64,000 nucleotides of DNA. Source: a phage. The notes beneath the pieces are model-generated. The model was not told the origin of the DNA, did no database searches, and worked only from the letters and a program-made list of their open reading frames with translations. Position 1 is the stretch's first letter; every line of letters starts with the position of its first letter. Below, piece by piece: positions 8,296 to 61,702 of this stretch. Location: NCBI GenBank assembly GCA_012441205.1, contig GCA_012441205.1_4705.1; one strand, written 5' to 3'. A program made the translations under genes and the position numbers.

Positions 8296-10908
8296 TTAAG
8301 CGTCCGGCGTAAAATCAAAAGGAATGTCCGTACGAATGATATCATAACGTTTTCCGAGGAAATAAAACTCTTCGGGAACCTGACCGGGAATAATGCTATC
8401 ACCGATGAACTGCGGATACGCCCAGATGTACTGAGTGAGTCCTTCGAACATATCCAGGTTATTTGCGTGGTTACCCATGATACGTTTCCAGAGTTCGCGT
8501 TTATACGGCGTTTTAACATCGAAACCATAAAGCGGTGCAAGATCTTCACCAGGAACAAATCCCAGGTAATAGTGAATCTGACTAACCGGGAAACCAAGCG
8601 TATCTCGCGGAATGGTGATCGCTTGCTCAGCTTTGGTGACATGCGTTTCAATAATCCAGTCGTAGCACTCTGAATAGAACCGATCGAATTTCTCTGGATT
8701 ATACCACGCTTTGGGAAGATTCAGTTTCTCCGTGAACGCATTCGACATGATCGTCGGTAAGAACGGAAGAACACCGGTTTTGATCTGCGTGTATTTCGAT
8801 TTTACCCGGTTAGCCAAATTCCAGCAACTGTATCCTAACTGTTCGTTACAAAACTCAACGTAGAGATCGTAATCACCGCCGGATAATGGGTTGTTGATAT
8901 CACCAATGTCTGCAGCGTATTTGTTGGGATATCGGTTATTGAAAGCCAGTTTGGTTTGGTAATCGTAGATACACGGTTTGTTGTTCGCTGTATTGATCCA
9001 CCACCAGGGTTCACCCACCTGTACACAAATGTCCTGGACATGAGGGTAAATAATATCGGCAAACGCGGTTAACACATCCCCTAACCACGCCATCGCCTGT
9101 TGGTTACATGGAGACAGCAACCAGGACGGTGGTGTATATCCGGTTGCTGCGATGTTTCCTTCCCAATCCTGCTGCGCCCACTCGAACGGGCAGGCTGTAC
9201 TCATCAATTCGTAACTTAAACTGATGGTGACAGAGAAATGGTGTTTTGCAGCATATGCGGCGAAAGCTTCATGCCACGCGATACAGGGTGGATTTAATAC
9301 ATCCGTGGTGTTCACCAGTAACTTACCCGCACTTGGCGTCCAGACAGTATCGTAGAAATGCGACATTCCAACATAATGCACTAATTCATCTTGATACCCC
9401 GCATAAACCAGGTTCTCAAATACACGCTCTGGCGTGATGTTGTAATGGTCATCGTAAGCGGTTATCGCACGAAGTTCGTGTGGTGTACAGTGGTGACGAT
9501 TAACCGTCATTTCCTGATACACCCCATCGATAGGAAGAATCTCGAGGGTTAAACCGAGGTCGATTGGCGTTTCCAGATAGGTCGTTTCAGTCGCACCTTC
9601 CTTATAATGTCGAGAACTCATGCTGAACATCAACGATGCTACCGATTCGAGTTCGATAGGCTCGTCAGCATAGAACCCCGCCATTGCGTCATTGAAATCG
9701 ATCGTTACGATTGCGCTTCTACCGTCTTCAGAGACATCGGTGGCGTATCGGGTTAATGAGATATACTGACGGCTATCGTCTTTGTGTACGACGGTTAAAA
9801 CCGGCGGGTTTTCGGTATCTGCAAAGTTACGCTGATCGCCAGTAAACGTGATCTTCGCTTTAAAGATCAAACCGAATAACGACGTCATGGGATCATACGC
9901 AATACAACCGTGATCCAGCGTATCCGTTGTCCGCCATTCTATCCCGACCAACCCGTTAGCGGTATGGCATCGCATATACGCATTAAGGACCATGTCTTCA
10001 CTGACAACCGCGAAGTTCTCTGTTGACTGACCGTTGATAATCCAATACATCGGTTGCCAGAGGTTACGCGTACCTTTTGCGTAGCGGTAGGTTGGTGCGC
10101 CTTTAGGGTTGCCGTTATTGAGATGGAATACGGCAGTACCTTGATAATGGTCGTTCGTATTAATCGGAACACTGTAAGCGTCACCGAGGTCCGTACGTTC
10201 CACCTTCGTGACCGTTGCGTTTTCAAATAACCCACGCAACGCTGGTAAACCGATATCTTCAGGCGCGTTTTCTCGACGAATCGCATCCGCGATGCGATGG
10301 GCTAAGGCGGGGTAAATAGCTTCACCCTGTTGTAGGTTTGCAAGACCTACAAAGCGATCAGGGTCGATACCAGCAATCAATAACTCAACATCACCCTTCG
10401 TTCTATCGTCGTTAAGATATTTCAGTCCGGTAAGGTCAAGATGCTGAATAAGCGACAACAGGTTGTATTTACGGTTTTCAACAGTTAGTACAAGATCGCC
10501 TGCCCAAACCAAACTTCCCTCATCCGCTGTTACTTTAACGGATTGTCGGCCTGTGGTAGACGTTGTTGTCGTTTTATTTAATTGTCCTTGTAGGAAGTCG
10601 GTTGCGAGGTCAAAGGCAATACCGTAACGGTCAGCGACCGCTTGCATGATTTCACGTAACTGGGTATCTTCTTCAATGATAATCTTGACAGGTATTCCCA
10701 GGAACGCTTTAGCGAGGTCTCGTTTAACCAACGAGACGAATACGGATTTGTAGTATCGGCTTCCATCTTTCCCTTTAAAAAGAATGGAGGTTGTTTCGGG
10801 TGCCGATAGAACACGTGCAAATTCAACATCGTCGAAAGTAAGAGAAAGTCCGTTTTTCTCGTTGACCAATCTTAGTATTTCATTTTGCGCGGTTTCATGT
10901 AACTTCAT
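8296..10908 (-). CDS. receptor-binding protein (tail fibre/spike) with conserved N-terminal anchor domain and large unique C-terminal domain (870 aa)
   Basis: N-terminal 150 aa align with four other proteins (17249..19003, 16563..17090, 22652..23482, 59837..61291); GAGG SD. Confidence 0.7.
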   Translation of the reverse strand: MKLHETAQNEILRLVNEKNGLSLTFDDVEFARVLSAPETTSILFKGKDGSRYYKSVFVSLVKRDLAKAFLGIPVKIIIEEDTQLREIMQAVADRYGIAFDLATDFLQGQLNKTTTTSTTGRQSVKVTADEGSLVWAGDLVLTVENRKYNLLSLIQHLDLTGLKYLNDDRTKGDVELLIAGIDPDRFVGLANLQQGEAIYPALAHRIADAIRRENAPEDIGLPALRGLFENATVTKVERTDLGDAYSVPINTNDHYQGTAVFHLNNGNPKGAPTYRYAKGTRNLWQPMYWIINGQSTENFAVVSEDMVLNAYMRCHTANGLVGIEWRTTDTLDHGCIAYDPMTSLFGLIFKAKITFTGDQRNFADTENPPVLTVVHKDDSRQYISLTRYATDVSEDGRSAIVTIDFNDAMAGFYADEPIELESVASLMFSMSSRHYKEGATETTYLETPIDLGLTLEILPIDGVYQEMTVNRHHCTPHELRAITAYDDHYNITPERVFENLVYAGYQDELVHYVGMSHFYDTVWTPSAGKLLVNTTDVLNPPCIAWHEAFAAYAAKHHFSVTISLSYELMSTACPFEWAQQDWEGNIAATGYTPPSWLLSPCNQQAMAWLGDVLTAFADIIYPHVQDICVQVGEPWWWINTANNKPCIYDYQTKLAFNNRYPNKYAADIGDINNPLSGGDYDLYVEFCNEQLGYSCWNLANRVKSKYTQIKTGVLPFLPTIMSNAFTEKLNLPKAWYNPEKFDRFYSECYDWIIETHVTKAEQAITIPRDTLGFPVSQIHYYLGFVPGEDLAPLYGFDVKTPYKRELWKRIMGNHANNLDMFEGLTQYIWAYPQFIGDSIIPGQVPEEFYFLGKRYDIIRTDIPFDFTPDA

Positions 10909-10930: not shown

Positions 10931-11572
10931 TTAAATGTACTGCTTACCGCCCACGAAGGAAGTTAACCAGTTCCCGCTGACGAGTTGTGATACCCAGCCT
11001 GGAACGGCTCTACCATTCTGGCTCATGATGTTACCACACCAACCAGGGAATCCGGGACGGATGTAATAGAAAGTTAAATTGTAGAGATGGCAATTCCATA
11101 CCGCAACGTTATGTTTACCAGAAACCGCTTTAAAGACAAACGCGACAGGTAACGGAGACGATAACAATTCGGTCACAGGGACGGCTGACCAGTTCGCATT
11201 CGCGTTCCATGGTTGCCAGGTATGGCTGCGCGAGTCGCAATATACGTTACCGTTGTTACCGCGCCCACCCGCATTCCACCACAGCGACGGACTCATGTTC
11301 TTAAGTGAGGTAAATTGCTGCGGTGGAATATTAGGAATAATAACAGGGTTGGTACCTTGCCCATGTTTCTTTTCTTTTGCGTTCACATACCCGCTTATCG
11401 ATTCGAGGTATTTGACACCAGGATAATTATTCTGGACTTGTGTCGCAATATCACGAACATCGAACGTCCAGCAGATCATGGTGTTGTAGTAAGCATCGGT
11501 GTTGTCGTACCATGCGTTACCATCTTGTAAACGTGCGCCACTATTCGGTGTTTTATCTGTGTTTATAGCCAT
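10931..11572 (-). CDS. fibre-associated protein, paralog A (213 aa)
   Basis: C-terminal about 45 aa nearly identical to the protein at 11582..12349; lies between fibre genes. Confidence 0.6.
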   Translation of the reverse strand: MAINTDKTPNSGARLQDGNAWYDNTDAYYNTMICWTFDVRDIATQVQNNYPGVKYLESISGYVNAKEKKHGQGTNPVIIPNIPPQQFTSLKNMSPSLWWNAGGRGNNGNVYCDSRSHTWQPWNANANWSAVPVTELLSSPLPVAFVFKAVSGKHNVAVWNCHLYNLTFYYIRPGFPGWCGNIMSQNGRAVPGWVSQLVSGNWLTSFVGGKQYI

Positions 11573-11581
11573 AGTGTTGTC

Positions 11582-12349
11582 CTATACTGCGATGATTGAG
11601 ATATCGGATGCCGGATGTGTGTTGCCATCAGGTGGTACGTACAGAAACACCCACAGATAAAACAGTAGCTTCTCTAACTTCAATTTAATTGAAGTTAGAT
11701 ATTGTTTACCTCCAACAAACGACGTTAACCAATTACCTGAAACAAGTTGCGATGCCCAGCCAGGCACTGCCCTACCGTTCTGGCTCATCACGTTACCTGC
11801 CCATCCCGGAAAACCAGGTCGGAAAATATATACTTGAATATGTGTTAAAGCGTTATCATTACCACCGCCAACAGCAACGTTACGACTCCCAGATGACGGG
11901 AAATATTCTTTTAAGAACAGAGGATCGGTTGCTAATAAAGATGCGGGCCAAGGGTTCGCGGATGCATCAACATCGAATTCGGTCCATCGCCATTTACGTC
12001 CCGTGTCGAACCATGTCGATGTACCACCACCCCTCACGGCAAGATTGCGCGCATCACGGACATTATAAATTGATTCGATGTTACGCCATCCACCTTTTGC
12101 AGCGTTTGCTGCATAGCAAACCGCATTACCACCATTCTTCTTCTCGTAAACGGTTCGTTTGATATGAACACGGTCGATGAACGCTTCACCGTATTTGTTG
12201 ACGAGCGTTTGTGCGATATCACGAAGATCGTGCATGTGAAAAGCGATGTCTTCGTTATGGAACCATGTTGTCTGGTTCCAGACGGTACCGTTTGGTTCGG
12301 CACACATCGATCGGATATTGTTGCGTTGATTAATCGCGATAAAACCCAT
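11582..12349 (-). CDS. fibre-associated protein, paralog B (about 255 aa)
   Basis: homologous to 10931..11572 along its length; start set at ATG 12349 with GAGG SD (track ORF extends to 12436). Confidence 0.55.
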   Translation of the reverse strand: MGFIAINQRNNIRSMCAEPNGTVWNQTTWFHNEDIAFHMHDLRDIAQTLVNKYGEAFIDRVHIKRTVYEKKNGGNAVCYAANAAKGGWRNIESIYNVRDARNLAVRGGGTSTWFDTGRKWRWTEFDVDASANPWPASLLATDPLFLKEYFPSSGSRNVAVGGGNDNALTHIQVYIFRPGFPGWAGNVMSQNGRAVPGWASQLVSGNWLTSFVGGKQYLTSIKLKLEKLLFYLWVFLYVPPDGNTHPASDISIIAV

Positions 12350-12404
12350 TGTATACCTCGTTCCTATTCTCAAAAAGGAAATTTCATACGATGACGCCAT
12401 AGCA

Positions 12405-12434
12405 GCTCCTCCTTCCCTTACGGGTTGGAGGAGC
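12405..12434 (-). terminator. hairpin element, second copy of the 7279..7312 element
   Basis: reverse complement nearly identical to 7281..7312; no strong U-tract. Confidence 0.4.
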
Positions 12435-12442
12435 ATACTTAA

Positions 12443-12949
12443 TTACTCGCTGATAACCTCAACGGAATTGGGATCAGCGATCATCGCACGGTCAGTAGAA
12501 CAATTGAAGAAGACCATGCCGACACCATCGCCGTTCGAGTTCAGGGTTGAACTTACGTAAGACAGGGTTGGTTTATTCATGCGGTAGAAGCGTTCGCTGG
12601 TTGCGGTATTGAACCCCAGGTCAACGTAGTCTTTCACCGTGGTGTACAACTGTGTGGACTCGAAAACGGTTACCGGAGAGTCGACGGTAAATTGACTACC
12701 TTCGTCTACAACCAGAACTTTATCGTTCCAGATTTCAGTGGTTGAGAACTTCGGTTTCCAATGTTCGAATTCCTGGGTTGCACCCCAGCAAGAATACACA
12801 GCGAGATTGCTGTTCTTCTCAACAGGTTTCAACCCCACCAGTTGTGTCAGGTCTTTATCCAGGTTCGGTAAGCCTTCCAGCGTAGCACACCCACCCAGAG
12901 AAAGTACCATCAACATACCAAGAACGATCGCACAAAGTTTCTTCATCAT
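12443..12949 (-). CDS. lipoprotein (168 aa)
   Basis: signal peptide ending in lipobox LSLGGC; AAGGAAA SD; directly downstream of the long tail fibre gene. Confidence 0.65.
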   Translation of the reverse strand: MMKKLCAIVLGMLMVLSLGGCATLEGLPNLDKDLTQLVGLKPVEKNSNLAVYSCWGATQEFEHWKPKFSTTEIWNDKVLVVDEGSQFTVDSPVTVFESTQLYTTVKDYVDLGFNTATSERFYRMNKPTLSYVSSTLNSNGDGVGMVFFNCSTDRAMIADPNSVEVISE

Positions 12950-12997: not shown

Positions 12998-15217
12998 TTA
13001 CTTTTTGAGCGCTTTAAGTTCTTCTTCCATCGCTTCCACTTTTGCCGTAAGCTTCTGTACTTGTTTGATTAATGGAACCACCAAACGTTCGTACATAACA
13101 CCTTCGGCGACGAGTCCGTTAGAAGAAACGATAGCGGGGTCATCTTCTTCGGTTGCATCACGCCAATGCACGTATTGTGGTGCGATCTCACCAACCTCTT
13201 CGGCAATCAACCCATACCAACCCCAATCCTTGTTGTCGGCTTCGCAGGTAGAACGATACCAGACAGGACGCATCTCCAATACTTTATCCGCTTGTTCATC
13301 CGTGATATTCTCGATATCTTTCTTATAGCGCCGCGACGACGTTGAACGAAACACATTGTTGATCCCAGCAGTAGGACTGATATACATATTAGCCCCGCTG
13401 GTTGTAGTGCTAATGTCCCATACCGCAAATCCGCCGTTACTCCCATTTCTCACGACCAACGTATTGGCAATAATATCCAGGTTATTGTTGTAACCGGTTA
13501 ACTGGTTTTCGGTGACAAAATCGGATAAGTTAACGGAGTAGTTCTTGCTGTTATAACAACGACGCCATCCTGGGCTGTTGGTGCTGCCATTATAGTTGTC
13601 GTAGCTATAAATGAACTCGGAGTTGGTTTTCGCACCACTGACGGAAGACGTGGTTGCGGTGGTAACACGGATAGTGTAGTTCGTCATCCCGAAGCTAACG
13701 ACCTCGATAACCGCACCAGCCAGAGGAATAATACCACATTTGGTTTCACTGTCTGGGATGTATGCGCTATCGGCAGCAGCGAAGGAGCAACGTGCGACCC
13801 AGGCACGGGTATTGAATGCACCTTGGTTCTGTAATAACGTAATAAACGATGAGGTCGTAATCGAGCTGTTATTATCACCTGTGATCAACCAGCCGGTTGG
13901 ACATGCGGTAGCACCAACGTTTTTCGCTGTTAGCGTGATGTTCTTCGATCCGTCGAAGGCTACGCCGCTGATGGTACGTGCAGTCTGTAGCTTCGTCGCC
14001 GTTGCCGCGTTCCCTGATGTGTTCTGGTTGCCTGTTGTATTCACACCCGGGATACTATCCTTAGATGTGTAGATCTGTGCCCATTCCGACCATTTCGCAT
14101 CGGTTGAATCACGACGTGAACGTAGGTAAGCTGGAGCGTGTGCACCCGAGGTACCTGACCATCCAATGAGGATTTCACCTTCGCCGACCGATGAAGCGCC
14201 TTTAAGATGAACAACGTTACCGTAGGCTGTAGGGTATCCGTTATTGTACGCTTCATACATCTGGATACCCGTATTGCTGCCCTGGGTCGCATTAGCTAAA
14301 GCGGTAACCCGTCCCTTGGAAGCGAGCACGTTAATGCTAAAGCTAATATCGGTTGTACCGTCAAAGGCGACCCCATTAATCCTCCGCGCTGTTTGGAGTT
14401 TCGTGGCAGTAGCCGCATTACCAGAGGTACTCTGATTGCCTGCTTTGTTCACACCTGGTAAATCAATGTTGGCGGTTCCATCAAAGGACACGCCCCCTAT
14501 GGTTCTCGCCGTCTGAAGTTTTGTTGCTGAACCAGCGTTTCCGGAAGTGCTTTGATTACCCGTCGCGTTGACACCTGGTAGGTTAATGCTAGCAGAACCA
14601 TCAAAAGAAACTCCACCGATCGTAATAGCTGTTCGCAACTTCGTGGCTGTCGCAGCGTTACCCGTCGTATTCTGATTACCAGCTGCATTGACGCCAGGTA
14701 ATGCGATATCAGCTGTGCCATCGAACGCGACACCTCCGATTTTACGGGCGGTTTGTAGCTTGGTTGCTGTAGCAGCATTACCGCTGGTATTTTGCGTACC
14801 GGCTTTATTTACACCAGGAAGATCGATGTTAGCAGAACCATCGAAGCTGACGCCACCTATCGTTCTTGCAGTAGCAAGTTTAGCGGCTGTAGCAGCGACG
14901 TTACCGACTTTTAACCATTCTCCCCATGGACCATCCACACCGTTCCATGATGCCGTTAAACTGCGCACGTATATGTTTCCTGTACGTACTGTGTAACGTT
15001 GTGTTCCACCGAATTGACCGGCTGGGAGCACTTCGATGTAACCTACAGCATTTGCTTCAGGGAAATTGTGGGCAGCATCGGCATTCGTTGATGTTTGTTT
15101 GGACCAAATACCCACAGACGCTTCAACCGGACCGTAGGTATCCAGATTTGCATCGGTGGGGAGCTGTCCTCGAAAACGTCGGAATAATGAAGCCGATAAC
15201 CCCAACGTTGTTTGCAT
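12998..15217 (-). CDS. long tail fibre, distal segment with tandem fibre repeats and C-terminal intramolecular-chaperone (S74-like) domain (739 aa from first ATG)
   Basis: about 40-aa repeats GNAATATKLQTARTIGGVSFDGSANIDLPGVN; C-terminal YKKDIENITDEQADKVLEMRPVWY...GLIAEEVGEIAPQYV; frame stays open upstream of the ATG to 15325. Confidence 0.8.
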   Translation of the reverse strand: MQTTLGLSASLFRRFRGQLPTDANLDTYGPVEASVGIWSKQTSTNADAAHNFPEANAVGYIEVLPAGQFGGTQRYTVRTGNIYVRSLTASWNGVDGPWGEWLKVGNVAATAAKLATARTIGGVSFDGSANIDLPGVNKAGTQNTSGNAATATKLQTARKIGGVAFDGTADIALPGVNAAGNQNTTGNAATATKLRTAITIGGVSFDGSASINLPGVNATGNQSTSGNAGSATKLQTARTIGGVSFDGTANIDLPGVNKAGNQSTSGNAATATKLQTARRINGVAFDGTTDISFSINVLASKGRVTALANATQGSNTGIQMYEAYNNGYPTAYGNVVHLKGASSVGEGEILIGWSGTSGAHAPAYLRSRRDSTDAKWSEWAQIYTSKDSIPGVNTTGNQNTSGNAATATKLQTARTISGVAFDGSKNITLTAKNVGATACPTGWLITGDNNSSITTSSFITLLQNQGAFNTRAWVARCSFAAADSAYIPDSETKCGIIPLAGAVIEVVSFGMTNYTIRVTTATTSSVSGAKTNSEFIYSYDNYNGSTNSPGWRRCYNSKNYSVNLSDFVTENQLTGYNNNLDIIANTLVVRNGSNGGFAVWDISTTTSGANMYISPTAGINNVFRSTSSRRYKKDIENITDEQADKVLEMRPVWYRSTCEADNKDWGWYGLIAEEVGEIAPQYVHWRDATEEDDPAIVSSNGLVAEGVMYERLVVPLIKQVQKLTAKVEAMEEELKALKK
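13936..14908 (-). repeat. in-frame coding repeats of the tail fibre (about 120-nt unit, about 5 tandem copies at 14344..14908 plus one distal copy at 13936..14047)
   Basis: repeats visible in both DNA and translation; copies are diverged. Confidence 0.6.
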
Positions 15218-15281
15218 CCCTTCAATGCTTGACTGCGATAGAAGCGCCCGAGCTGTCGACGTGATGGCCGCTAAAGCAACC

Positions 15282-16556
15282 TTATCCGTACCGGTAAAAA
15301 AACGGGAATTTGTTTGCTGATGTTGCTAAACCTGAAAGGGCGGTCAGTAATGCGTTAAGGGGTTGTTTCCCGGCTAGCGCGTTAGTCACAGTCGTTGCAA
15401 AGTTTGGATCATTACCTAACGCTTGAGCTAACTCGTTAAGCGTATTTAGCGCTTCTGGAGACGAGTCGATCAGCGACGCGATAGCACGCATCACAAATTC
15501 CGTGTTGGCGATCTGTTGACTGCTATCGTTCTCTGCAGCCGTAGGTGCTGCTGGGATACCGGTGAACACAGGGTTATTAAGATCCGCCTTAAGGGCGATG
15601 AGACGTCTAAGTGCTTCAACATCGACTTTCAGGTTTTCCCATCCGACGAGATAACCATCACCGGTTGTGTGATAACGGTTGTACCAAAAATCGCCATTAA
15701 CGCCAAAATAAAATATTCCCTTCTCTTCGTATTGTGGGCCAGAACTGTTCCGTGATGAGCTAATGTATTTTATTTCGATAAGGCCGTTGAATACCACTCC
15801 TGGGATAATTTTGTCGTTTCCAGACGATTGCGATACCTGGTAAGCCCCCGGTGTTGTGGCTCTAACCCAAGTCAAGAATTCTGATGTTCCAGCGTTACCG
15901 CTAAAACGCTTGACGTCGGTAAGTATCGCACCAAAACCGAACATACCGGGTAAAGCAACTCGCCCATCGGTACGGTCACGAATATCTGTTGCAACAACAG
16001 GCAACTGCTTACGAACATCATTAACTGCTTTAGGTGTCGCTGATTTTGTCTCATCGTCGCTATCGATATCACTGCTCAGGATGGTCAGTCCTCGAGTATC
16101 TGTGGTTGCATCAGGAAGAAACGCGTTATCTAACACCTTAAGCTGTATCGCATCCGTGTTATTAACAACAACATACACTTGACAGTTAAGAACGCTGGTT
16201 GCGCCTTCGGTAGGCACAGGCTTGTATCTTTCTGGTGCACTGCATACGGCGACCAGAACACCTTGATTGTCATACAGACCGATCTCACGTACCCAGAACC
16301 CACCTTGACTGGCAGGAATAATACCCTCAACAATAATCCTGGTTGTGTCGTCAACATCAATACGGATGTTGGAAACTTCCCCACGATAAACTTCGTGTAC
16401 AAGTGCTGTTTGGCTAGCATCGGGGGTTGGTGTAGAACCGTTGCCATCACCAACGGCAAAATGCGTAATTCTTAGTTTCTCACCGTCAGGAAGTAATGCT
16501 GCGGTGATACGTTCAGCGCCTTTATCGGTAATGACCGTTTTATAAGTTGTACTCAT
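15282..16556 (-). CDS. tail fibre, N-terminal segment (P2 gpH-like tail-collar fibre domain), ends prematurely at the T7 run (424 aa)
   Basis: MSTTYKTVITDKGAERITAAL...ITHFAVGDGNG...QTALVHEVYRG...GGFWVREIGLYD matches the P2 H / tail-collar fibre N-terminal domain. Confidence 0.85.
   Translation of the reverse strand: MSTTYKTVITDKGAERITAALLPDGEKLRITHFAVGDGNGSTPTPDASQTALVHEVYRGEVSNIRIDVDDTTRIIVEGIIPASQGGFWVREIGLYDNQGVLVAVCSAPERYKPVPTEGATSVLNCQVYVVVNNTDAIQLKVLDNAFLPDATTDTRGLTILSSDIDSDDETKSATPKAVNDVRKQLPVVATDIRDRTDGRVALPGMFGFGAILTDVKRFSGNAGTSEFLTWVRATTPGAYQVSQSSGNDKIIPGVVFNGLIEIKYISSSRNSSGPQYEEKGIFYFGVNGDFWYNRYHTTGDGYLVGWENLKVDVEALRRLIALKADLNNPVFTGIPAAPTAAENDSSQQIANTEFVMRAIASLIDSSPEALNTLNELAQALGNDPNFATTVTNALAGKQPLNALLTALSGLATSANKFPFFYRYG
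15296..15302 (-). other. T7 homopolymer (A7 on plus strand) at the frame change joining the two tail fibre segments
   Basis: removing one T fuses ...ANKFPFF to TGTDKVALAAITSTARALL... in frame. Confidence 0.55.
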
Positions 16557-16562
16557 GGCGTT

Positions 16563-17090
16563 TTATCCCGGGTAAATAGTGATGACATCACCGATGACAG
16601 TTGCCGCACCGACGCAAAGATACGCTGGTGATGTATCACGCTGGTTTGTCACGATAAGATCCAATTGCCCACGCCAAACCATGGAGGTATTCGCGATGGG
16701 AATCGAGATCTTCTTGGAAGTATCGTCACGAAAATTAATGGCGGTAGCAAGGGTAGCTGAATCAAAATCAACGTCGGGTTCAAAGTTGAAACCGTATTGA
16801 TCCGAAATAGCTTGAATAACCGCTCTTATGGTTGTTGTTTCAACCGACTCCAAAACGATTTTTATCGGTATTCCTAGAAATGCTTTCGCTATATCACGCC
16901 GTGTGTAAGTGATAAAACTTTCACCACACCACCTTGTTCCTTCATTTGCTGTGACGATCACTTTTGCCCTGTTAACACCAGAACTCCCATCCAGGGTTAA
17001 AGTGAGATCGGAGTTGCTGAATACACTACTGTTACGTTGGTTTATCAACGTAATAAGTTCGTCTTTCCATGGTGGGTAAAGTGAACGCAT
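16563..17090 (-). CDS. anchor-domain protein, short paralog (175 aa), immediately upstream of the tail fibre gene
   Basis: MRSLYPPWKDELITLINQRN...RRDIAKAFLGIP aligns with the conserved N-terminal domain; start set at ATG 17090 with GGAGGAGGG SD. Confidence 0.65.
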   Translation of the reverse strand: MRSLYPPWKDELITLINQRNSSVFSNSDLTLTLDGSSGVNRAKVIVTANEGTRWCGESFITYTRRDIAKAFLGIPIKIVLESVETTTIRAVIQAISDQYGFNFEPDVDFDSATLATAINFRDDTSKKISIPIANTSMVWRGQLDLIVTNQRDTSPAYLCVGAATVIGDVITIYPG

Positions 17091-17195: not shown

Positions 17196-17240
17196 CGCAT
17201 ATTGCCCCTCTATCCCGACAAAGCGAGATAGAGGGGAGGA
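17196..17240 (-). terminator. hairpin after CDS 17249..19003
   Basis: 10-bp stem CCCCTCTATC/GATAGAGGGG with 12-nt loop; weak U-tract. Confidence 0.35.
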
Positions 17241-17248
17241 TAATACGA

Positions 17249-19003
17249 TTATGCTGCTACATATCCAGGCCAACGTTCTCTTGGCCAGTTTGTTGCGCCC
17301 TGTCCAACGTTGTCCTTACCAGAAATTACATTACTTACGTCCCAACCACTAAGATCCTGGTTAAATGCGGTGTTGTTACGCATCATGAGGTCGATATTAC
17401 GTAATGATTGGGTATTCCAGCCGGAAATGTCTTGGTTGAATGCCGTGTTGTAAGCAAACATGTTAACAACGTTTTGTAATTTTGAAGTGTTCCAGCCGCT
17501 AATATCGCCATTGAACTGCATGCTCGAGAACATACTGCTAGCATCGATAAGACTATCTGTTTTCCAGTTAACCAGCTTGTTTTCATCAAGTGCGTTGCAA
17601 CTACTGAACATGTAACTCATGTTGTTAACTTTGGATACATCCCATTTATCTAACCCGTTACCAACGAACTCGTAACAAGCTTGGAACATCCAGCTCATGT
17701 CGGTAACCTGGCTCACATTCCATTTGCTAAAGTCGAGGTTGAGTTTTGCGCATCCGGAGAAAGTTTTATACATACTGGTGATACGACTAACATCCCATTC
17801 TTGAATGTTAGGATCATTAAGTATAGATAAGAATTGGAACAATCCGTCTAACGACGTCCATTTCTCTGGAATACGGTTTGGTACTGTACGGAGCGATGAA
17901 AGGTTATTGGTTGACGGAGAGCGGAACATACCGTTATCCCAATTTACGATTTCCGTAATGTTGTACCCACGGATCGTTTGGCGTCCATTACCATTATACA
18001 CAGACCCTGTTGCAGTTATTGTATATTCGTTTGTATCAGCATACGTATGTTCAGCCTGTGTAGGCCACTCACCTATTACATCCCTATTCCCATCACCCCA
18101 ATCGATGGAAATATTTGTCCAACCATCAAGATCTAGGGTAACGGTCCCGCCATTGGTCTTCAGGATGTATTTACCTGCATTGTCGGTATAATAACAAACG
18201 ATCATCGCACCGTACAGGTTACCAATTTGCCAATCATCCTTTTGAGTTACCGCGATATGTGCTGTGCCACGTTGTAGGAAAAGAACCGTACGGTTCTCGT
18301 CAGTCTGTAATGTGGTTAATGCTTGAGCCTTATCATCGTCGGTAATTTCACCAGCTTCCACTAAAGCACTTAACATTCTTTCGAAGTATTCGATGGGTAA
18401 TTGGTGTCCTACAGACATATCAACTGATGGAACAGCGAGATCATCCAATGCGGCGGCAGTTGCAAGCACTAATGATCCATTGGTGGTGTCTGTTTCTTGG
18501 AGGTAATGCAGTCCCGTAATCTGGTACGCTTGAATGATTGTAATCAGATCCAGCGTATCGTTAATGACCTGTACTTGTAAATGTCCAGACCAAACATAGC
18601 TGCTTTCAGCAATCGGTAATTCGACCGACTGAATACCCGATGTTTCAAAACTGATCTTCTTATTAAGATCGGCTTCCAGGAAATCAACCGCGAGGTCGAA
18701 ATTTATACCGTACTTTTCAGCGATGGAATCTATGATGTTCCTGAAAGCAACATCGGTACTTACGATGAATCGTAAAGGGATTCCTGTGAACGCATTAGCA
18801 ATATCTCGACGAACATACGTAAGTGATTGTTCGAAGAAATAGGGACTGTTATCTCCAGGTTTGATGGTTACCTGACACATTTCAGGATGTTCAGCTGGGA
18901 TGAACGATTCAAATTTAACATCGGATTCCTTCAACGAAAGCATGTTCTTCCGGTTTACCAGCGCCAGAAGATCGGCTTTCCATCCAGGATAAACAGTAGA
19001 CAT
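17249..19003 (-). CDS. receptor-binding protein: N-terminal anchor domain, PKD-like motif and C-terminal BspA/DUF285-type repeats (about 584 aa)
   Basis: anchor alignment; ISIDWGDGN...HTYADTNEYTI; repeats WDVSxVTxMxxMFxxCxxFNxDISxW; start set at ATG 19003. Confidence 0.7.
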   Translation of the reverse strand: MSTVYPGWKADLLALVNRKNMLSLKESDVKFESFIPAEHPEMCQVTIKPGDNSPYFFEQSLTYVRRDIANAFTGIPLRFIVSTDVAFRNIIDSIAEKYGINFDLAVDFLEADLNKKISFETSGIQSVELPIAESSYVWSGHLQVQVINDTLDLITIIQAYQITGLHYLQETDTTNGSLVLATAAALDDLAVPSVDMSVGHQLPIEYFERMLSALVEAGEITDDDKAQALTTLQTDENRTVLFLQRGTAHIAVTQKDDWQIGNLYGAMIVCYYTDNAGKYILKTNGGTVTLDLDGWTNISIDWGDGNRDVIGEWPTQAEHTYADTNEYTITATGSVYNGNGRQTIRGYNITEIVNWDNGMFRSPSTNNLSSLRTVPNRIPEKWTSLDGLFQFLSILNDPNIQEWDVSRITSMYKTFSGCAKLNLDFSKWNVSQVTDMSWMFQACYEFVGNGLDKWDVSKVNNMSYMFSSCNALDENKLVNWKTDSLIDASSMFSSMQFNGDISGWNTSKLQNVVNMFAYNTAFNQDISGWNTQSLRNIDLMMRNNTAFNQDLSGWDVSNVISGKDNVGQGATNWPRERWPGYVAA

Positions 19004-19041: not shown

Positions 19042-22000
19042 TTAAATTGTCGGTTTCACGTCGCGTAATAGGGCAATATAATAGCCTAATCCTCGGAGGA
19101 TCTCCCCACTCCAGAAACCAAAATACATTCCGTCTCTGCCGAGATTAGCACTATCTGGTGCAGGACTCCACCCACCATTCATTGCGTCATCAACGGTGTA
19201 GCGGTTGATGTAGTTTTCAACGATTTCATTATAAACGTTAACGGCAACAGGATAGCCTTTATCGTTGGGATGCCCATACAACATCGCTAACGACGCACCC
19301 GCTAACCATAATCCTGCCATATGACCAGTAAAGTCATTAGGGATAAAAGCAGGGGGTTTATCCATCGGAAAATCCGTAGGAGATTGATAAGCGTTTTCCT
19401 GTTGATACGTAAACAAGAAATCGATCCAATGGCTGATGTAAGTGGTTAACTTCTCAGGGACAGCCAAACCATGATCGAGCAGTCCGGCATAAAGCCTCAC
19501 CGCTGAAAAGAAAGCCCTCGGCTGATAACCAGACCATGCTGTCTGATCGCCGAAGTGGTACATCGTAAAATCATTAACTTTCGATCCGCTTGGCGCATCC
19601 CAACGATCCCACACGTACGCACTTGCTCCTGGCCCTAAAACCCCGAATTTCTGATAATACCACTGCTGCGAGTCATACCAGAAATTCACAACATTCTGAA
19701 TCATGAGGTCACGTCGTTCAGCCGATACGTCCATATCCAGGAAGACCCATGGATGTTGGTAGCCGGGATAAGGCTGACCACGCCAGCTGTCGAACGTCGG
19801 TGCGTTAGGGATATAGTTGTTCGAGAACGGAATAATACCCGGAGTATAAGGCAATGGATCCAGACGTTGGTTGACAATCGTACAATCGCCAACACGCAAT
19901 GTGCCCTCTGCCTCAAAGATTGCTTTTAACGTAAACAGCATGGTATATCCGTCATCCGTGGTGTAAGTTGACGGTGGATTGTTGATGGCGTAAAGCTTAA
20001 ATACCCCTTCAGCGATATCGCTGTCATCAGGCAAGAACAGAATTTCAGTTGAACCGTCGCCCCACACAGGTGCGGAAGGTTTAGGGTCAGTATCAGCATG
20101 GCCAGGTTGATACCCTGAGAGCCTCCATCCGTTCGCCGAAAGCGTCAATGTATTTCTTGCTGTGGTGGCCGGTAGCATATACCACCATCGCCAACCATTT
20201 GCATCTTCTACACGAACGTTGTAGTCAATCGACGCGAAATAACTGACCTGCCTTACGATCTGTTTTGCGGTTGGATTGAATTCAAATTGTCCGCCTGCCG
20301 CAGTAAGCTGCGCTTTTAGGAACAACCCATCCCAGGAATCTTCCACTGCTTCGCTGAATTCTGTTGTGATTGCGATATCGTCTTTCCAGCCGACTTTATC
20401 AGCCGACATCAACACCGAACCTGTAACAGCATCACCGGTTGGTATTGAAGCTTCATCAACCGCATCAGCGGGAATCAACGAGCCTATTTTGAAATCCCAT
20501 CCTTTCGGTTCAACGCTGGAAGGTAATACCAGCTTGTACGTTTTGGCTTTCGCTTCGGTTTTGTCCAAAGAAAGCGATAATGAGATCTCAACCGGAATTG
20601 CAACGCCTGTCGTATCTTTACCGCCGCAGGTTACCCGAAGAATTGAATCACGATTGACGCGGAACGGAATGGCCTGCTGTTCAAGGTAAATTTGTGCTGA
20701 AGATGCTTGAATCACGATCCAACCATCGGTATCACGCGTGATTGTGAACGGCGCTTTCGACGGGTATGTATACGTGTAAGCGATACCGTCGGTGTCGTAA
20801 CGATCGGTTCCTTTTACTTGACGGAAGAACTTATCGTTAGCGTCAATACGGGTATATTCTTCAATCGTAAACAAAGACGCCTTGTACGCTTTCTGATAAC
20901 GCTCCTGCTGCGTTAAACGGTATAAGGTGTAGGCTGCTTCACAAAACCACTGTTCAGCGTCTGACGCGTTTCCCATGTAGTCTCTGGTGACTGGTACCTG
21001 GATCGGTCGGTTATGCTGACACTCGTTCGTTTTGATGAGGTATCCGCCATATTCAACAGGAACACGCGGTGCCCATGCAACCAAGTAAGAACCGTTGACG
21101 GATTTATCTTTGAGTACGATAGTACCTACTTCATCGTCAGTACACGCTTCAAGATCGTCCCCGTCAGCACTTACGTAACGTTTTGTGCGTAACGCAACTT
21201 TCTCGATAGGGAACACCGTACCCTTTGTATCCCAGTCAATCGTCCCATCATCATTGGTTTTGAACACATCCGCGTTCAAATTCTGCCAGCCGAGTTTACC
21301 TTCATAGACCTGAACAACAAGATCCATGTATTCCCCGAACGTTGGTGCCCCATGTGTTATTTTCCCGATACCGTTGGTGAATGTAACCGCTGTGTCATGG
21401 AAACCGCCATGTGTTGGGTAATCGTCTTTTGCAAGAGGATAATGGGCCAACACAGGTTGTTTACCATTAACAATCCAGTTAGCGATCCAGCGTGCCGGTG
21501 TATCCGGTGGTTCAAGGCCTGCATAGAACGCTTTTATATACGCATCGAACGATGCCTCTGCTAATGTGAGATAGTGCGCTTTAAGCTTGGTATCATCCGT
21601 TGTATGACTGAATATACCCGCACCCAGAATTAACAACGACTGTCCTTCTGTTGTTGCGTCACCATCCGGTTGTGCTTCTTGTCGTGTTGCTGCAATGAAA
21701 TGACGGTTGTTTACCATGACCCCGCTTTCATTTAACACGTAATGATCGGTTTCTGGGTCGGTAAACGTTCCTGTGTTTCGGGTTAAGAATCTTGCATGGC
21801 CATAACCAACGAAATTAACCGGCGACGCTGTAATCATCCATTTACCGATAAGTTGAGCAACATCATTATAACGCTCGGATGCGGTGATTTGTTTCACGTA
21901 CCAGTCTTTATGGTTAAATGTCCAAAGCAGGAAGTAATAAGTTGTATCGATTTCCATCACTGGGAACGTCGGCGTTAACGGCTCCAGCGTTAAGTAGTTG

Positions 22001-22638
22001 CTCCAGTCAATCTGTCCGCCAACCACCGATGGGGTAATCTCTAATAACTGACACCATTCATAACGGTCCGGTACACTACTGGACGTTGTTGGTAAAGGTA
22101 ACTTGTATACGCCAGTACGATTCAGATCGAACGCTTTTCTAGCCGATCCTAAATCAACATAAATACTCGATGATGCGCTTGCACTATATGCCCCCAAAGC
22201 ACCTAGCGTTGACCGATACATTGAGATGAACAACGTATCTTTCCAGTAAGGGTTATCCTTGGTTGGTTCTAAAGCGATTTGTGCGGAGATGCTGTTCCAT
22301 GTCCCTAACTGGTATGTCGCATTTAAAGATTCTTCTGTGAAATAACTTTCTGCAATCGTCAGATGGAACTGCTCGTTCAATAACGCGAGTGCGGCGCGGC
22401 CAGTAACATCCTCGTTACCGGTTTCTTTTTTCACGATCGCGCCGAACGGAAACAGTGTCGCGAATGACCGTTTTGGTTTATTAACCGTAACCGTCCCTGT
22501 GTAATTTCCAACACCGTCAAGTTTTTGACTATCGCCAACAGCAGTGACTGCGATACCATCAGCCGGGATATTTGTTTTATTTAGTACATTGAGTTGGTCA
22601 ACCAGATCCTGCTTATCGTCAGGTAAGAATGTCGCCAT
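19042..22638 (-). CDS. large tailspike-like protein, possible depolymerase (1198 aa)
   Basis: very long ORF directly downstream of an anchor-only gene; AAGGTGGAG SD; no catalytic motif recognised. Confidence 0.65.
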   Translation of the reverse strand: MATFLPDDKQDLVDQLNVLNKTNIPADGIAVTAVGDSQKLDGVGNYTGTVTVNKPKRSFATLFPFGAIVKKETGNEDVTGRAALALLNEQFHLTIAESYFTEESLNATYQLGTWNSISAQIALEPTKDNPYWKDTLFISMYRSTLGALGAYSASASSSIYVDLGSARKAFDLNRTGVYKLPLPTTSSSVPDRYEWCQLLEITPSVVGGQIDWSNYLTLEPLTPTFPVMEIDTTYYFLLWTFNHKDWYVKQITASERYNDVAQLIGKWMITASPVNFVGYGHARFLTRNTGTFTDPETDHYVLNESGVMVNNRHFIAATRQEAQPDGDATTEGQSLLILGAGIFSHTTDDTKLKAHYLTLAEASFDAYIKAFYAGLEPPDTPARWIANWIVNGKQPVLAHYPLAKDDYPTHGGFHDTAVTFTNGIGKITHGAPTFGEYMDLVVQVYEGKLGWQNLNADVFKTNDDGTIDWDTKGTVFPIEKVALRTKRYVSADGDDLEACTDDEVGTIVLKDKSVNGSYLVAWAPRVPVEYGGYLIKTNECQHNRPIQVPVTRDYMGNASDAEQWFCEAAYTLYRLTQQERYQKAYKASLFTIEEYTRIDANDKFFRQVKGTDRYDTDGIAYTYTYPSKAPFTITRDTDGWIVIQASSAQIYLEQQAIPFRVNRDSILRVTCGGKDTTGVAIPVEISLSLSLDKTEAKAKTYKLVLPSSVEPKGWDFKIGSLIPADAVDEASIPTGDAVTGSVLMSADKVGWKDDIAITTEFSEAVEDSWDGLFLKAQLTAAGGQFEFNPTAKQIVRQVSYFASIDYNVRVEDANGWRWWYMLPATTARNTLTLSANGWRLSGYQPGHADTDPKPSAPVWGDGSTEILFLPDDSDIAEGVFKLYAINNPPSTYTTDDGYTMLFTLKAIFEAEGTLRVGDCTIVNQRLDPLPYTPGIIPFSNNYIPNAPTFDSWRGQPYPGYQHPWVFLDMDVSAERRDLMIQNVVNFWYDSQQWYYQKFGVLGPGASAYVWDRWDAPSGSKVNDFTMYHFGDQTAWSGYQPRAFFSAVRLYAGLLDHGLAVPEKLTTYISHWIDFLFTYQQENAYQSPTDFPMDKPPAFIPNDFTGHMAGLWLAGASLAMLYGHPNDKGYPVAVNVYNEIVENYINRYTVDDAMNGGWSPAPDSANLGRDGMYFGFWSGEILRGLGYYIALLRDVKPTI

Positions 22639-22651
22639 TATTTACTCCACC

Positions 22652-23482
22652 TTAATCGTAACTAAAATAAAGTTTGCTGCTGACGCCGCTATCGGAATGA
22701 GGTTTTAACACCAGAACAGAGCTTCCGAACGACGGAAGTATTGGAACATCTAAATCGTTCGCATCGGCAACTTTTCCATTATAAACGACATTGGCTGTTG
22801 TGATGAGTTCCCAGGCTAAGGTATAACTCATTGAAATCAGCGACGAGGCTAAACGGAATGCATTGTATCCTTCTGGAGTATCTCCAACCGACATCGTACG
22901 TATCGCATCTTGCGGCGGTAAATTTAGCTTGATGCCGTAGGTGCTGAATGTGTGGAAATCCCCTTGTTTACTATCTTCTGGATAATACGAGGTTAGCGGT
23001 TCTCGCACCGTAATCAGTTCGCTAATATCGGTACTTACCGCTTTTCGGGCGAGGAATTGAAACGTACCGTACCACGATGCTGATGTATCAGAATGAACGG
23101 GAACAGCTATGGTTTTCTCGTCGCTTTCAAATTTAACCTGCGACACTAACGCTGAAGAATCAAAGATCGTTAAATCGATCTTCAACCCATACTTCTTAAA
23201 CAGCTGCGTTAAGCAGTCTGCTATCGTCGTCTTATCAGCAACGACAATAAAAGGTTGGTGTTTGATAAAGAGCTTATTAATGTCTCGACGTTGAAGATAA
23301 ACCTGTACGGGGTCTTCGATATAGTAAGCCGATTGTGGTGCGGGGACTATAGAAAGGCGTAACCGACCTGATGCACCATACCAGGCTGGCGTTAACGTAA
23401 CGTCTGACAGAGACAACGGGTGCTGGAGATAGGCGTTTATTTTAGATAACACTTCCTCCTGCCATGATGCTTCAGGATACAT
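22652..23482 (-). CDS. anchor-domain protein, divergent paralog (276 aa); first gene of the fibre operon
   Basis: W..EVL..IN...LSLSDVTL...YYIEDPVQVYLQRRDINKLF...YGLKIDL aligns with the conserved anchor domain; GAGG SD. Confidence 0.65.
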   Translation of the reverse strand: MYPEASWQEEVLSKINAYLQHPLSLSDVTLTPAWYGASGRLRLSIVPAPQSAYYIEDPVQVYLQRRDINKLFIKHQPFIVVADKTTIADCLTQLFKKYGLKIDLTIFDSSALVSQVKFESDEKTIAVPVHSDTSASWYGTFQFLARKAVSTDISELITVREPLTSYYPEDSKQGDFHTFSTYGIKLNLPPQDAIRTMSVGDTPEGYNAFRLASSLISMSYTLAWELITTANVVYNGKVADANDLDVPILPSFGSSVLVLKPHSDSGVSSKLYFSYD

Positions 23483-59740: not shown

Positions 59741-59785
59741 GAAGCTCTGCCTGATGTCAGGCAGAGCTTTATGCTGTATTTGTTG
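59741..59785 (+). terminator. intrinsic terminator after the helicase gene
   Basis: 12-bp perfect palindrome AGCTCTGCCTGA/TCAGGCAGAGCT followed by TTATGCTGTATTTGTTG. Confidence 0.6.
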
Positions 59786-61291: not shown

Positions 61292-61352
61292 AAAAAAAAA
61301 TAGTTAGCATATCTTCCTCCCTACCCATAACGGGCGGGGAGGAAGGTTTTAT
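61292..61352. terminator. bidirectional terminator between convergent genes
   Basis: A-run after the plus-gene stop, 9-bp stem CTTCCTCCC/GGGAGGAAG, then GTTTTA. Confidence 0.5.
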
Positions 61353-61363
61353 GGCGTTATGAC

Positions 61364-61702
61364 TTAGAACCAGAGTTCTTTCATGAAGTAGGCTTCCGTA
61401 TCGTAGATAAGCCACCCATCGGGGATTTCTAAAGGATCGTCTTCGGTTAAGGTGAGCATGTGCAGGGCGAACGCACGCTTAATATCTTCCAACAGCTTAT
61501 CATCACCGTAACCTTCGGGTAGTTTACGGTCAGCCAGCTGAGTTTGTTTATAGACATCGCGGAACGCTTCAGGATTATGTTTATCCATCGGGAATTGTTC
61601 AGCAGCCTGAACCATCGAAAGCGTCCAGCTTACAACATTGTAACGCTCACCGTTAATTTCACTGAACTGATCATCGATTAAACAGATTTGTTGTATATTC
61701 AT
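61364..61702 (-). CDS. hypothetical protein (112 aa)
   Basis: ORF. Confidence 0.5.
   Translation of the reverse strand: MNIQQICLIDDQFSEINGERYNVVSWTLSMVQAAEQFPMDKHNPEAFRDVYKQTQLADRKLPEGYGDDKLLEDIKRAFALHMLTLTEDDPLEIPDGWLIYDTEAYFMKELWF

Follow-up and report, generated by a model that had tools for sequence, protein, structure and literature searches.

Two proteins encoded in the DNA of a jumbo phage, here termed A and B, carry repeats of a kind shared with bacterial surface proteins, which raises the question of what they do for the virus. The 64,000-nucleotide stretch analysed (the window; GenBank assembly GCA_012441205.1) belongs to an E. coli jumbo phage related to Goslar, a nucleus-forming phage, and is 87-96% identical to Goslar across conserved genes. 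Nucleus-forming jumbo phages evade many DNA-targeting defences and are attractive for therapy, and their host recognition is poorly understood. In the best explanation, to which we assign a probability of roughly 0.6, A and B serve this Goslar-like chimallivirus as accessory adhesins associated with the virion, and their C-terminal module binds a ligand on the host surface. The underlying finding is correct and mostly not new, given that proteins of this kind, combining a DUF7941 domain with an LRR module, were already described for Goslar in 2026.

Gene organization and relationship of A and B

Gene A (17249..19003, minus strand) encodes 584 aa and gene B (59837..61291, plus strand) 484 aa. 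Both open reading frames are present on opposite strands as originally predicted, with a separation of 40.8 kb, close to the 40 kb first given. Translation of A starts from an ATG at 19003, with GGAG five bases upstream, in agreement with its 584-aa homologues. Its reading frame, Pfam matches and AF2 model divide the protein into a DUF7941 N-terminal domain, a linker, a helical/beta middle region, a PKD-like cap and a DUF285 LRR solenoid. B, the orthologue of Goslar gp161, has the same architecture with a shorter LRR. The two proteins are 46% identical across 450 residues and, judged by sequence, are paralogues in which a DUF7941 attachment domain is joined to a bacterial-type LRR module (DUF285). 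Comparison of A with its orthologues yields dN/dS values of 0.06-0.16, indicating a functional gene under purifying selection. An origin from an E. coli prophage or plasmid was rejected, as neither PLSDB nor the complete E. coli genomes contained a match.

The N-terminal domain and its genomic neighbourhood

The anchor domain predicted to be common to A and B is confirmed by profile search as Pfam DUF7941 (PF25613), scoring 76.7 bits in A (E 2.7e-21) and 89.4 bits in B (E 3.7e-25) against a cut-off of 27. In A, this globular domain spans residues 1-148 (18560..19003, minus strand), is a proposed assembly or anchor module, and is the best-conserved segment of the protein (entropy 0.26 bits; dN/dS 0.03-0.06). 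Its sole significant PDB match by Foldseek is 9xqd_0, from the outer peripheral baseplate of phiKZ (E 3.8e-4, probability 1.00); the alignment has 24% identity over 148 columns and a TM-score of 0.39 on the target, and the AF2 model of the domain is of low confidence (pLDDT 35-70). A sequence-profile search of the PDB with the N-domain profile gave no match. The phiKZ outer peripheral baseplate structure (PDB 9XQD) includes the DUF7941 protein gp127 (PMC13250141), which we infer to be the matched chain.

A lies within a fibre/baseplate module, beside three or four further DUF7941 genes. Paralogues on the minus strand include a DUF7941-only protein of 175 aa resembling Goslar gp91 (16563..17090), a 276-aa protein resembling gp93 (22652..23482), and an 870-aa protein resembling gp86 that combines a full DUF7941 with NCTSP_N and a TIM barrel (8296..10908). 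Also on this strand is a 1198-aa protein resembling gp92 (19042..22638), assigned to a tail protein PHROG; an N-terminal DUF7941 module has been reported for the gp92-like tail protein (Basu et al., bioRxiv 10.64898/2026.04.21.720040), and hhalign relates the copy in the window to DUF7941 only at E 0.021, which does not confirm the module. A separate true fibre, with a tail-collar N-domain, fibre repeats and an S74 chaperone, is encoded at 12998..16556. Downstream of A, a hairpin lacking a U-tract occurs at 17205..17236 (minus strand; -26.1 kcal/mol, z -5.0).

The DUF285 repeats and the PKD-like cap

The DUF285-type tandem repeats predicted for both proteins are recovered by PF03382 far above its cut-off of 25 bits (A 151.2 bits, E 1.3e-44; B 90.1 bits, E 1.2e-25), and by the model of the 26-residue PARCEL repeat, TIGR02167 (A 70.1 bits, B 50.7 bits; cut-off 30). 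The BspA-type LRR proper, LRR_5 (PF13306), has no match in A or B at E <= 0.1; 'BspA family' is the NCBI product name for DUF285 proteins. In A, residues 346-553 (17345..17968, minus strand) comprise two degenerate turns and six canonical repeats of 24-26 aa. These canonical units, of the form W(D/N)(V/T)S...MF...FNQD(I/L)SG, occupy residues 403-553, preceded by the degenerate turns and followed by a C-terminal cap. Structure prediction, which had been proposed as a check, was performed with AF2 and folds the DUF285 part of A into an LRR solenoid of ~24-residue turns that can be superposed on solved LRR proteins. B has two canonical units, lacking the ~100-residue block that holds the others of A. 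Autocorrelation at a lag of 25 residues in A exceeds that of all 500 shuffles, and in B, owing to the short array, reaches no more than z~2.3. No sorting domain for bacterial-type surface targeting was matched by Pfam in A or B, the N-terminus of which is instead DUF7941.

N-terminal of the repeats, residues 284-345 of A (17969..18154, minus strand) form a PKD-like segment (WGDG...HTY) that varies more than any other part of the protein. Entropy averages 0.98 bits across this segment and 1.7 bits at residues 311-320, with dN of 0.25-0.49; variability in A is thus greatest in the PKD-like cap, not on the LRR face. The PKD-like motif predicted for both proteins holds as a WGDG...HxY motif: among 31 sequences D-W-G-D-G and Y321 (of HTY) are invariant, and H319 is invariant or nearly so. 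It does not hold as a Pfam PKD domain, given that PKD/PKD_4 (PF00801/PF18911) covers about half of the profile at sub-threshold scores (15.5 versus 23.5 bits in A, 15.0 versus 27 in B). The PKD domains of ColH rank first in a PDB profile search with the segment, yet at E 0.08, and structure prediction gives a beta-sandwich of generic type. A bona fide PKD domain is not supported by these results, with scores below the gathering threshold. The WGDG...HxY unit also caps DUF285 blocks in bacterial homologues, where its partial match to the PKD profile exceeds the Pfam thresholds.

The A and B genes share an identical 22-nt block in the IDWGDGN core, and in one related genome a patch within the PKD-like segment is common to both. 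A diversity-generating retroelement behind the hypervariable segment was also considered and rejected for the window: no template-like repeat for either variable segment occurs in the 64 kb.

Distribution among relatives and exchange at the B locus

The original prediction had proposed that gene presence be compared across related phages; this comparison shows that the B locus is constant in all relatives examined and that A is missing from Goslar. Among uncultured Goslar-like phages, A is represented in about 50 protein clusters. In Goslar, the last 13 nt of the A reading frame are retained and directly abut the sequence that immediately precedes the A start, indicating a clean deletion; loss in Goslar is therefore favoured over a gain of A by insertion in the present phage. 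The gp92/93 and gp86 paralogues are likewise missing from some relatives.

B had been thought to look like an autonomous, possibly exchangeable cassette, a proposal that the comparison contradicts. Mobility of the whole gene was rejected: Goslar, GCA_961210045, SRR6504847 and a relative from IMG/VR all keep the locus and its flanks, and only the 3' ~900 nt diverge. Residues 1-182 (59837..60382, plus strand), comprising the DUF7941 domain and linker, are conserved at ~94-95% nucleotide identity to Goslar and GCA_961210045. Residues 183-484 (60383..61288, plus strand) constitute a swapped C-terminal module of middle domain, PKD-like cap and LRR, as delimited by sliding identity and protein alignment; here nucleotide identity to relatives falls to 40-65% with sharp boundaries, while neighbouring genes remain above 90%. 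Compared with gp161, the protein is ~97% identical over residues 1-180 and ~40% over the C-terminal 300. Exchange is hence limited to the C-terminal ~300 codons (60380-61280). In some contigs, B is split into reading frames of 276 and 193 aa. A low-sensitivity search for other C-terminal domains fused to the B N-domain yielded three proteins, two of which are split B genes and not new fusions.

Hairpins do exist on both sides of B, where strong terminators had been predicted, though they were missed by a simple terminator scan and were found by folding. The upstream hairpin, which follows the helicase gene (59741..59770, plus strand), has a 13-bp stem (-23.7 kcal/mol, z -6.2), and its counterpart in Goslar carries a terminator annotation. 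The second (61303..61355; -29.3 kcal/mol, z -5.1) lies between B and the convergent gene at 61364..61702 and, with U-runs on both strands, is likely a bidirectional terminator.

DUF285-type repeats were predicted to be uncommon in the fibres of enterobacterial phages. They are indeed rare, being found in 114 of 50,697 phage records, but precedents exist in Klebsiella phage N1M2, Serratia phage Yubaba, Kosakonia phage Kc263, Edwardsiella phage pEt-SU and Erwinia phage AH04. In the searches of this analysis, the DUF7941-DUF285 fusion was found solely in Goslar-like phages.

Proposed function and alternative explanations

The DUF7941 family has been proposed to form baseplate-anchored filaments assembled head to tail, as polymers rather than trimers. 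This proposal is supported by negative-stain images of purified gp22 filaments and otherwise by AlphaFold predictions, DUF7941 density being unresolved in the Goslar baseplate map (Basu et al., bioRxiv 10.64898/2026.04.21.720040). A and B are probably host-binding decorations of such filaments on the virion baseplate. By extension from the structural work on Goslar and phiKZ, the DUF7941 domain and linker would insert A and B into the filaments of the peripheral baseplate, or onto their ends. The filaments would then display the C-terminal module, in which a beta-sandwich with the WGDG...HxY cap precedes the DUF285 LRR solenoid, a combination that bacterial surface proteins also contain. This module may bind its host-surface ligand at the first, reversible contact. 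A receptor-binding role is plausible: a constant N-terminus and a divergent C-terminus separated by sharp breakpoints are a pattern typical of host-recognition proteins, and such a role fits the proposal made for the orthologue gp161 (Basu et al., bioRxiv 10.64898/2026.04.21.720040). The deletion of A in Goslar, the absence of the gp92/93 and gp86 paralogues from some relatives and the splitting of B indicate accessory status.

Specificity appears to diversify through replacement of the whole C-terminal module, as seen at B, through exchange of patches between A and B in the PKD-like segment, and through point variation, both there and at defined positions in every LRR turn. A more specific scheme, in which the two loci trade cap-loop patches via the 22-nt block and C-terminal modules are swapped between phages, is speculative and rather doubtful. 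Were it true, adhesin diversity would be generated combinatorially on polymeric, non-trimeric filaments, a route to altered host range unlike tail-fibre swapping or diversity-generating retroelements.

Four other explanations were weighed. A and B might have a structural or scaffolding role in the peripheral baseplate or in attaching the fibre, with the LRR binding a phage protein such as the fibre encoded beside A. This is unlikely given that A is cleanly deleted in the viable Goslar and that B is split in some genomes. The replacement of the B C-terminus by one at ~40% identity, amid neighbours above 90%, is also hard to square with a fixed internal partner, and the adjoining fibre varies independently among relatives (834-1332 aa) while A stays 73-96% identical.

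Somewhat less likely still is that A and B adhere to gut mucus, particles or flagella, raising encounter rates without setting host range (the 'adherence to mucus' model). Gut and faecal samples are indeed a source of Goslar-like phages, as are many assemblies labelled E. coli or Salmonella, bacterial DUF285 surface proteins have varied partners, and the DUF7941 filaments have themselves been proposed to form a micron-scale 'cloud' that increases encounter probability (Basu et al., bioRxiv 10.64898/2026.04.21.720040). Rapid mosaic change of the C-terminus is nevertheless more readily explained by an arms race against bacterial surfaces that vary than by attachment to conserved mucins.

Classical trimeric tail fibres or tailspikes, the conventional kind of receptor-binding protein implied by the original prediction, and for which the position of A in a tail-fibre module and the conserved N-terminus and variable C-terminus could speak, are very improbable: A and B are predicted to fold as LRR solenoids of one chain each, lacking any coiled-coil, triple beta-helix or chaperone domain, Pfam detects no fibre or tailspike domains in either while finding them in the true fibre encoded apart, and DUF7941 is reported as a head-to-tail polymer (Basu et al., bioRxiv 10.64898/2026.04.21.720040). 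Least credible of all are LRR effectors injected into, or acting within, the cell on host proteins in the manner of SlrP, IpaH or YopM, since matches to these reflect generic LRR geometry at 8-12% identity, A and B are of the surface-protein DUF285/PARCEL type and DUF7941 maps to the outer baseplate of phiKZ.

If DUF7941-LRR proteins are adhesins as preferred here, their modular C-terminal parts offer natural starting points for predicting host range or re-engineering it. The comparison of relatives locates both the border between anchor and exchangeable part, at codon ~182 in B, and the fastest-changing segment, at residues 284-345 in A.

Comparison with known systems

The DUF7941 proteins gp127 and gp126 of phiKZ (PDB 9XQD; PMC13250141) resemble A and B through the Foldseek match of the N-domain, made with a low-confidence model, and differ in that no LRR module has been reported for them. 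DUF285 repeats are shared with the jumbo-phage proteins OBP_145 (1713 aa), N1M2 gp118 and AH04 gp170 (PHROG 17273), the genes of which also lie beside baseplate genes. Unlike A and B, these proteins are about 1,700-2,000 aa long; OBP_145, the one member of the group scanned, contains no DUF7941 by Pfam.

Bacterial DUF285/PARCEL surface proteins, including those of Flavivirga and Teredinibacter, Mycoplasma lipoproteins and the 26-residue-repeat proteins of Listeria (Roske et al. 2010, PMC2996958), have the same repeat of 24-26 residues and a WGDG...HxY...YTV cap N-terminal of each repeat block. A and B are 30-35% identical to such proteins over ~260-315 residues. However, the bacterial proteins possess secretion signals, lipoprotein or T9SS anchors (Por_Secre_tail) and many more repeats, whereas A and B have DUF7941 in place of the anchor and one short repeat block.

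The closest known counterpart is Goslar gp161 (YP_009820846.1), named 'BspA family LRR surface protein' in RefSeq. It is classed as DUF7941+LRR within the chimallivirus DUF7941 'fibre cloud' family, and MS of purified Goslar virions detected it at about 110 copies (74-174), a detection that concerns gp161 and not A (Basu et al., bioRxiv 10.64898/2026.04.21.720040). B occupies the same position as gp161, between the same helicase and 112-aa genes, and both A and B share its DUF7941 and LRR architecture. In contrast to gp161, B carries a different allele of the C-terminal module (~40% identity). The present phage also differs from Goslar in possessing A, which is 100 residues longer owing to a ~100-residue block of DUF285 repeats with no counterpart in the B type. 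Structural and proteomic work on the laboratory phage Goslar alone, which has no A, thus under-samples the DUF7941-LRR family.

Genomic context

Around genes A and B, the window matches a single entry of the phage collection, Escherichia phage vB_EcoM_Goslar, a nucleus-forming jumbo phage of 237 kb belonging to the proposed family Chimalliviridae. Identity to Goslar is 87–93% by megablast, rising to 96% across the gp92-like gene, and no match to the window was found among complete E. coli genomes or plasmids; the window is therefore part of a Goslar-like phage that is either uncultured or newly sequenced. Near-complete Goslar-like genomes of 235–248 kb are present in many public assemblies (Logan, ENA and NCBI contigs), some of them submitted under the name of E. 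coli or Salmonella, and the diversity of the clade is far above that of the one cultured isolate in the phage collection.

Domain architecture of genes A and B

Both reading frames lie at the predicted positions on opposite strands. Gene A (17249..19003, minus strand) encodes 584 aa from an ATG at 19003, with GGAG five bases upstream (a longer ORF to 19018 is unused in homologues), and gene B (59837..61291, plus strand) encodes 484 aa; the proteins are 46% identical across 450 residues. The shared anchor domain proposed for them is the N-terminal Pfam family DUF7941 (A, E 2.7e-21; B, E 3.7e-25). The proposed BspA/DUF285-type tandem repeats are likewise borne out, by C-terminal matches to Pfam DUF285 (E 1.3e-44 and 1.2e-25) and to NCBIfam TIGR02167, the 26-residue 'PARCEL' repeat (70 and 51 bits; cut-off 30 bits). 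Written in register, A contains six canonical repeats of 24–26 residues at residues 403–553, of the form W(D/N)(V/T)S..(V/I)..M..MF.....FNQD(I/L)SG, with two degenerate turns before them and a C-terminal cap after. B contains two, and is without the block of about 100 residues that holds A's other canonical repeats. Antisense reading frames cross A's N-terminal cap and first LRR turns (17805..18191, plus strand, 128 aa) and B's DUF285 repeats (60907..61236, minus strand, 109 aa), consistent with the 'palindromic' coding that has been described for PARCEL repeats.

The PKD-like motif of the original prediction is real, in that all of 31 sequences keep D-W-G-D-G and the HTY tyrosine unchanged; its assignment to a PKD domain was not supported. 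Isolated middle regions matched only Pfam PKD and PKD_4, at 15 bits, well under the cut-offs, and a PDB profile search ranked the PKD domains of collagenase ColH first with a non-significant E of 0.08. In bacterial DUF285 proteins (e.g. Flavivirga), the unit N.(S/T)V.WGDG...HSY...G.YTV.ITG directly precedes every DUF285 block and, unlike the phage copies, gives a partial Pfam PKD match above threshold. Because the same unit stands ahead of each bacterial block, the motif is the conserved cap at the N-terminal end of the DUF285 module.

In an AlphaFold2 model of A computed from an alignment of 31 sequences, pLDDT exceeds 90 through most of residues 200–584 and is 35–70 in the poorly modelled N-terminal domain. 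The modelled N-domain tentatively matches a chain of PDB entry 9XQD, the phiKZ outer peripheral baseplate, which includes gp127 among its proteins. phiKZ gp127 is a DUF7941 protein whose N-domain has been modelled beside the outermost gp139 dimer (10.64898/2026.04.21.720040). The matched chain may be gp127.

Distribution, variability and exchange

Gene A has no counterpart in Goslar, where gp91 and gp92 are adjacent. Since Goslar homology enters the 3' end of the A ORF by 13 nt and resumes just upstream of the A start, A was cleanly deleted in the lineage of Goslar. A is otherwise common: its homologues, clustered at 90% identity, form about 50 groups of proteins that are 62–96% identical to A and come from contigs as long as 247 kb, several bearing an E. 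coli or Salmonella label given by the depositor. Across 22 orthologues, the N-domain has a column entropy of 0.26 bits and residues 284–345 one of 0.98 bits, with a peak of 1.7 bits at residues 311–320, between WGDG and HTY. The 284–345 segment also has the greatest dN (0.25–0.49). Overall dN/dS is 0.06–0.16 (rough ratios, with dS saturated in several pairs), and A is therefore under purifying selection.

At gene B, the exchanged unit lies within the gene. Compared with Goslar and GCA_961210045, nucleotides are at least 85% identical (mostly >90%) up to ~60380 (codon ~182), 40–65% from there to ~61280, and 86–100% at the stop codon. B had been described as a possibly exchangeable cassette between two strong terminators. 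Exchange of the whole gene is contradicted by this internal boundary and by the constant position of B in all relatives examined. The flanking structures are present, with a terminator role that is predicted throughout: a 13-bp hairpin upstream (-23.7 kcal/mol, z -6.2), whose Goslar homologue is annotated as a terminator, and a downstream hairpin (-29.3 kcal/mol) bordered by an A11 run and by a U-rich stretch, probably bidirectional since it lies between convergent genes. With hairpins on both sides, B is likely a monocistronic unit. A comparable hairpin downstream of A, without a U-tract, is equally a putative terminator.

Two variants occur at or near this locus. In a contig of SRR6504847 (locus L011, 5001-6452) and protein cluster P0122, B is split at the same locus into a 276-aa DUF7941 ORF and a 193-aa DUF285 ORF, suggesting either that B is dispensable or an assembly error. 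The helicase gene downstream of B in L011 (7822-10452) encodes 876 aa, with a weak LAGLIDADG match, vs 524 aa in relatives, suggestive of a homing-endonuclease or intein-type insertion.

Contig CAUIQD010000007.1, from a related genome, carries both A (locus L003, 10001-11755) and B (locus L004, 4001-5443). These share a 241-nt patch (nt 833-1073) of 88.8% identity vs ~66% elsewhere, and over A residues 296–345 this B is 92% identical to A of its own genome vs 49% to the best other B. The patch indicates exchange between the two loci, ~40 kb apart; a second case, P0058, is weaker. In the window, the only common stretch is a perfect 22-nt block over the IDWGDGN codons (18085-18106 and 60743-60764), directly upstream of the hypervariable segment and within surroundings only ~66% identical, which could serve as a recombination anchor. 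No DGR-type template repeat was found within the 64-kb window. Most worth pursuing are the exchange between A and B and, in B, the module swap with its sharp boundaries.

DUF7941 paralogues and the tail module

Five N-domain copies were found in the window by tblastn. B, the counterpart of Goslar gp161, is one; the other four lie within one minus-strand module, namely A, a gp86-like protein (8296..10908, 870 aa), a gp91-like protein (16563..17090, 175 aa) and a gp93-like protein (22652..23482, 276 aa), the last three corresponding to Goslar gp86, gp91 and gp93. The gp86-like protein combines a full DUF7941 with NCTSP_N (the Pfam 'non-contractile tail sheath protein' N-domain) and a TIM barrel, and is likely a glycan-degrading family member. 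The module also encodes a 1198-aa gp92-like tail protein and a true tail fibre with tail-collar N-domain, fibre repeats and S74 chaperone. The DUF7941 gene set varies among Goslar-like phages: the gp92/gp93 pair is missing from GCA_961210045 and ERZ19210725, and gp86 from GCA_961210045. The tail fibre encoded between these genes varies from 834 to 1332 aa across relatives.

The fibre gene (12998..16556, minus strand) is split into ORFs of 424 and 739 aa by an extra T in a T7 run (~15297-15303), where relatives read CCG-TATTTT in a single ORF of 834–1332 aa; the frameshift either stems from faulty sequencing or assembly, or is genuine and inactivates or splits the fibre. Just downstream, a 168-aa ORF (12443..12949, minus strand) with a signal peptide and lipobox-like LSLGGC is kept at the fibre in all relatives examined, even with a different fibre, a position reminiscent of that of Llp, the receptor-blocking lipoprotein of phage T5. 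Neighbouring minus-strand ORFs of 213 aa (10931..11572) and 284 aa (11582..12436) have a nearly identical C-terminal block of ~45 residues, FRPGFPGW.GN.MSQNGRAVPGW.SQLVSGNWLTSFVGGKQY; Goslar has the 213-aa gene only, and relatives have a second copy of 220–255 aa or none.

Proposed role and relation to known systems

On the best-supported reading, with a probability of roughly 60%, genes A and B encode accessory, virion-displayed adhesins. Each protein would dock into baseplate-anchored filaments through its conserved DUF7941 N-domain and linker, and would touch a ligand on the host surface with its cap and LRR module. This fits the conservation pattern, the module swapping, the accessory distribution and the presence of gp161 in virions. 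Rival readings would make A and B an internal scaffold, an adhesin with a non-host target, a classical trimeric fibre or an injected LRR effector.

The original observation is confirmed and its interpretation supported in part, and the core of the idea is already published for the closest relative, in an April 2026 bioRxiv preprint on Goslar. Goslar gp22, 23, 31, 33, 34, 86, 91, 92, 93 and 161 are described there as a chimallivirus-specific family, of which purified gp22 forms long filaments; head-to-tail assembly is predicted, and a phiKZ gp126-gp127 dimer was fitted in peripheral-baseplate density (10.64898/2026.04.21.720040). gp161, classed as DUF7941 plus LRR, was found in purified virions at an estimated 74–174 copies, and a 'fibre cloud' anchored at the baseplate was proposed to serve in the initial recognition of the host (10.64898/2026.04.21.720040). 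A is thus a new member, and B a new allele, of a kind already described.

The repeat was predicted to be uncommon in fibres of enterobacterial phages. By tblastn, A's C-terminal 289 residues match 114 of 50,697 phage records, which agrees with rarity. Jumbo phages and cyanophages predominate among them, frequently with several copies per genome; yet the matches include the enterobacterial jumbo phages Klebsiella N1M2, Serratia Yubaba and Sureiya, Kosakonia Kc263, Edwardsiella pEt-SU, Erwinia AH04, Pantoea Survivor and Citrobacter Tr1. In OBP, N1M2 and AH04, the repeats lie within proteins of about 1,700–2,000 aa adjoining a baseplate gene, and DUF7941 was not detectable in OBP_145, the one such protein scanned. 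Among all hits, the DUF7941–DUF285 fusion is found in Goslar-like phages only, and the cap and repeats are common to phage and bacterial DUF285 proteins as one unit.
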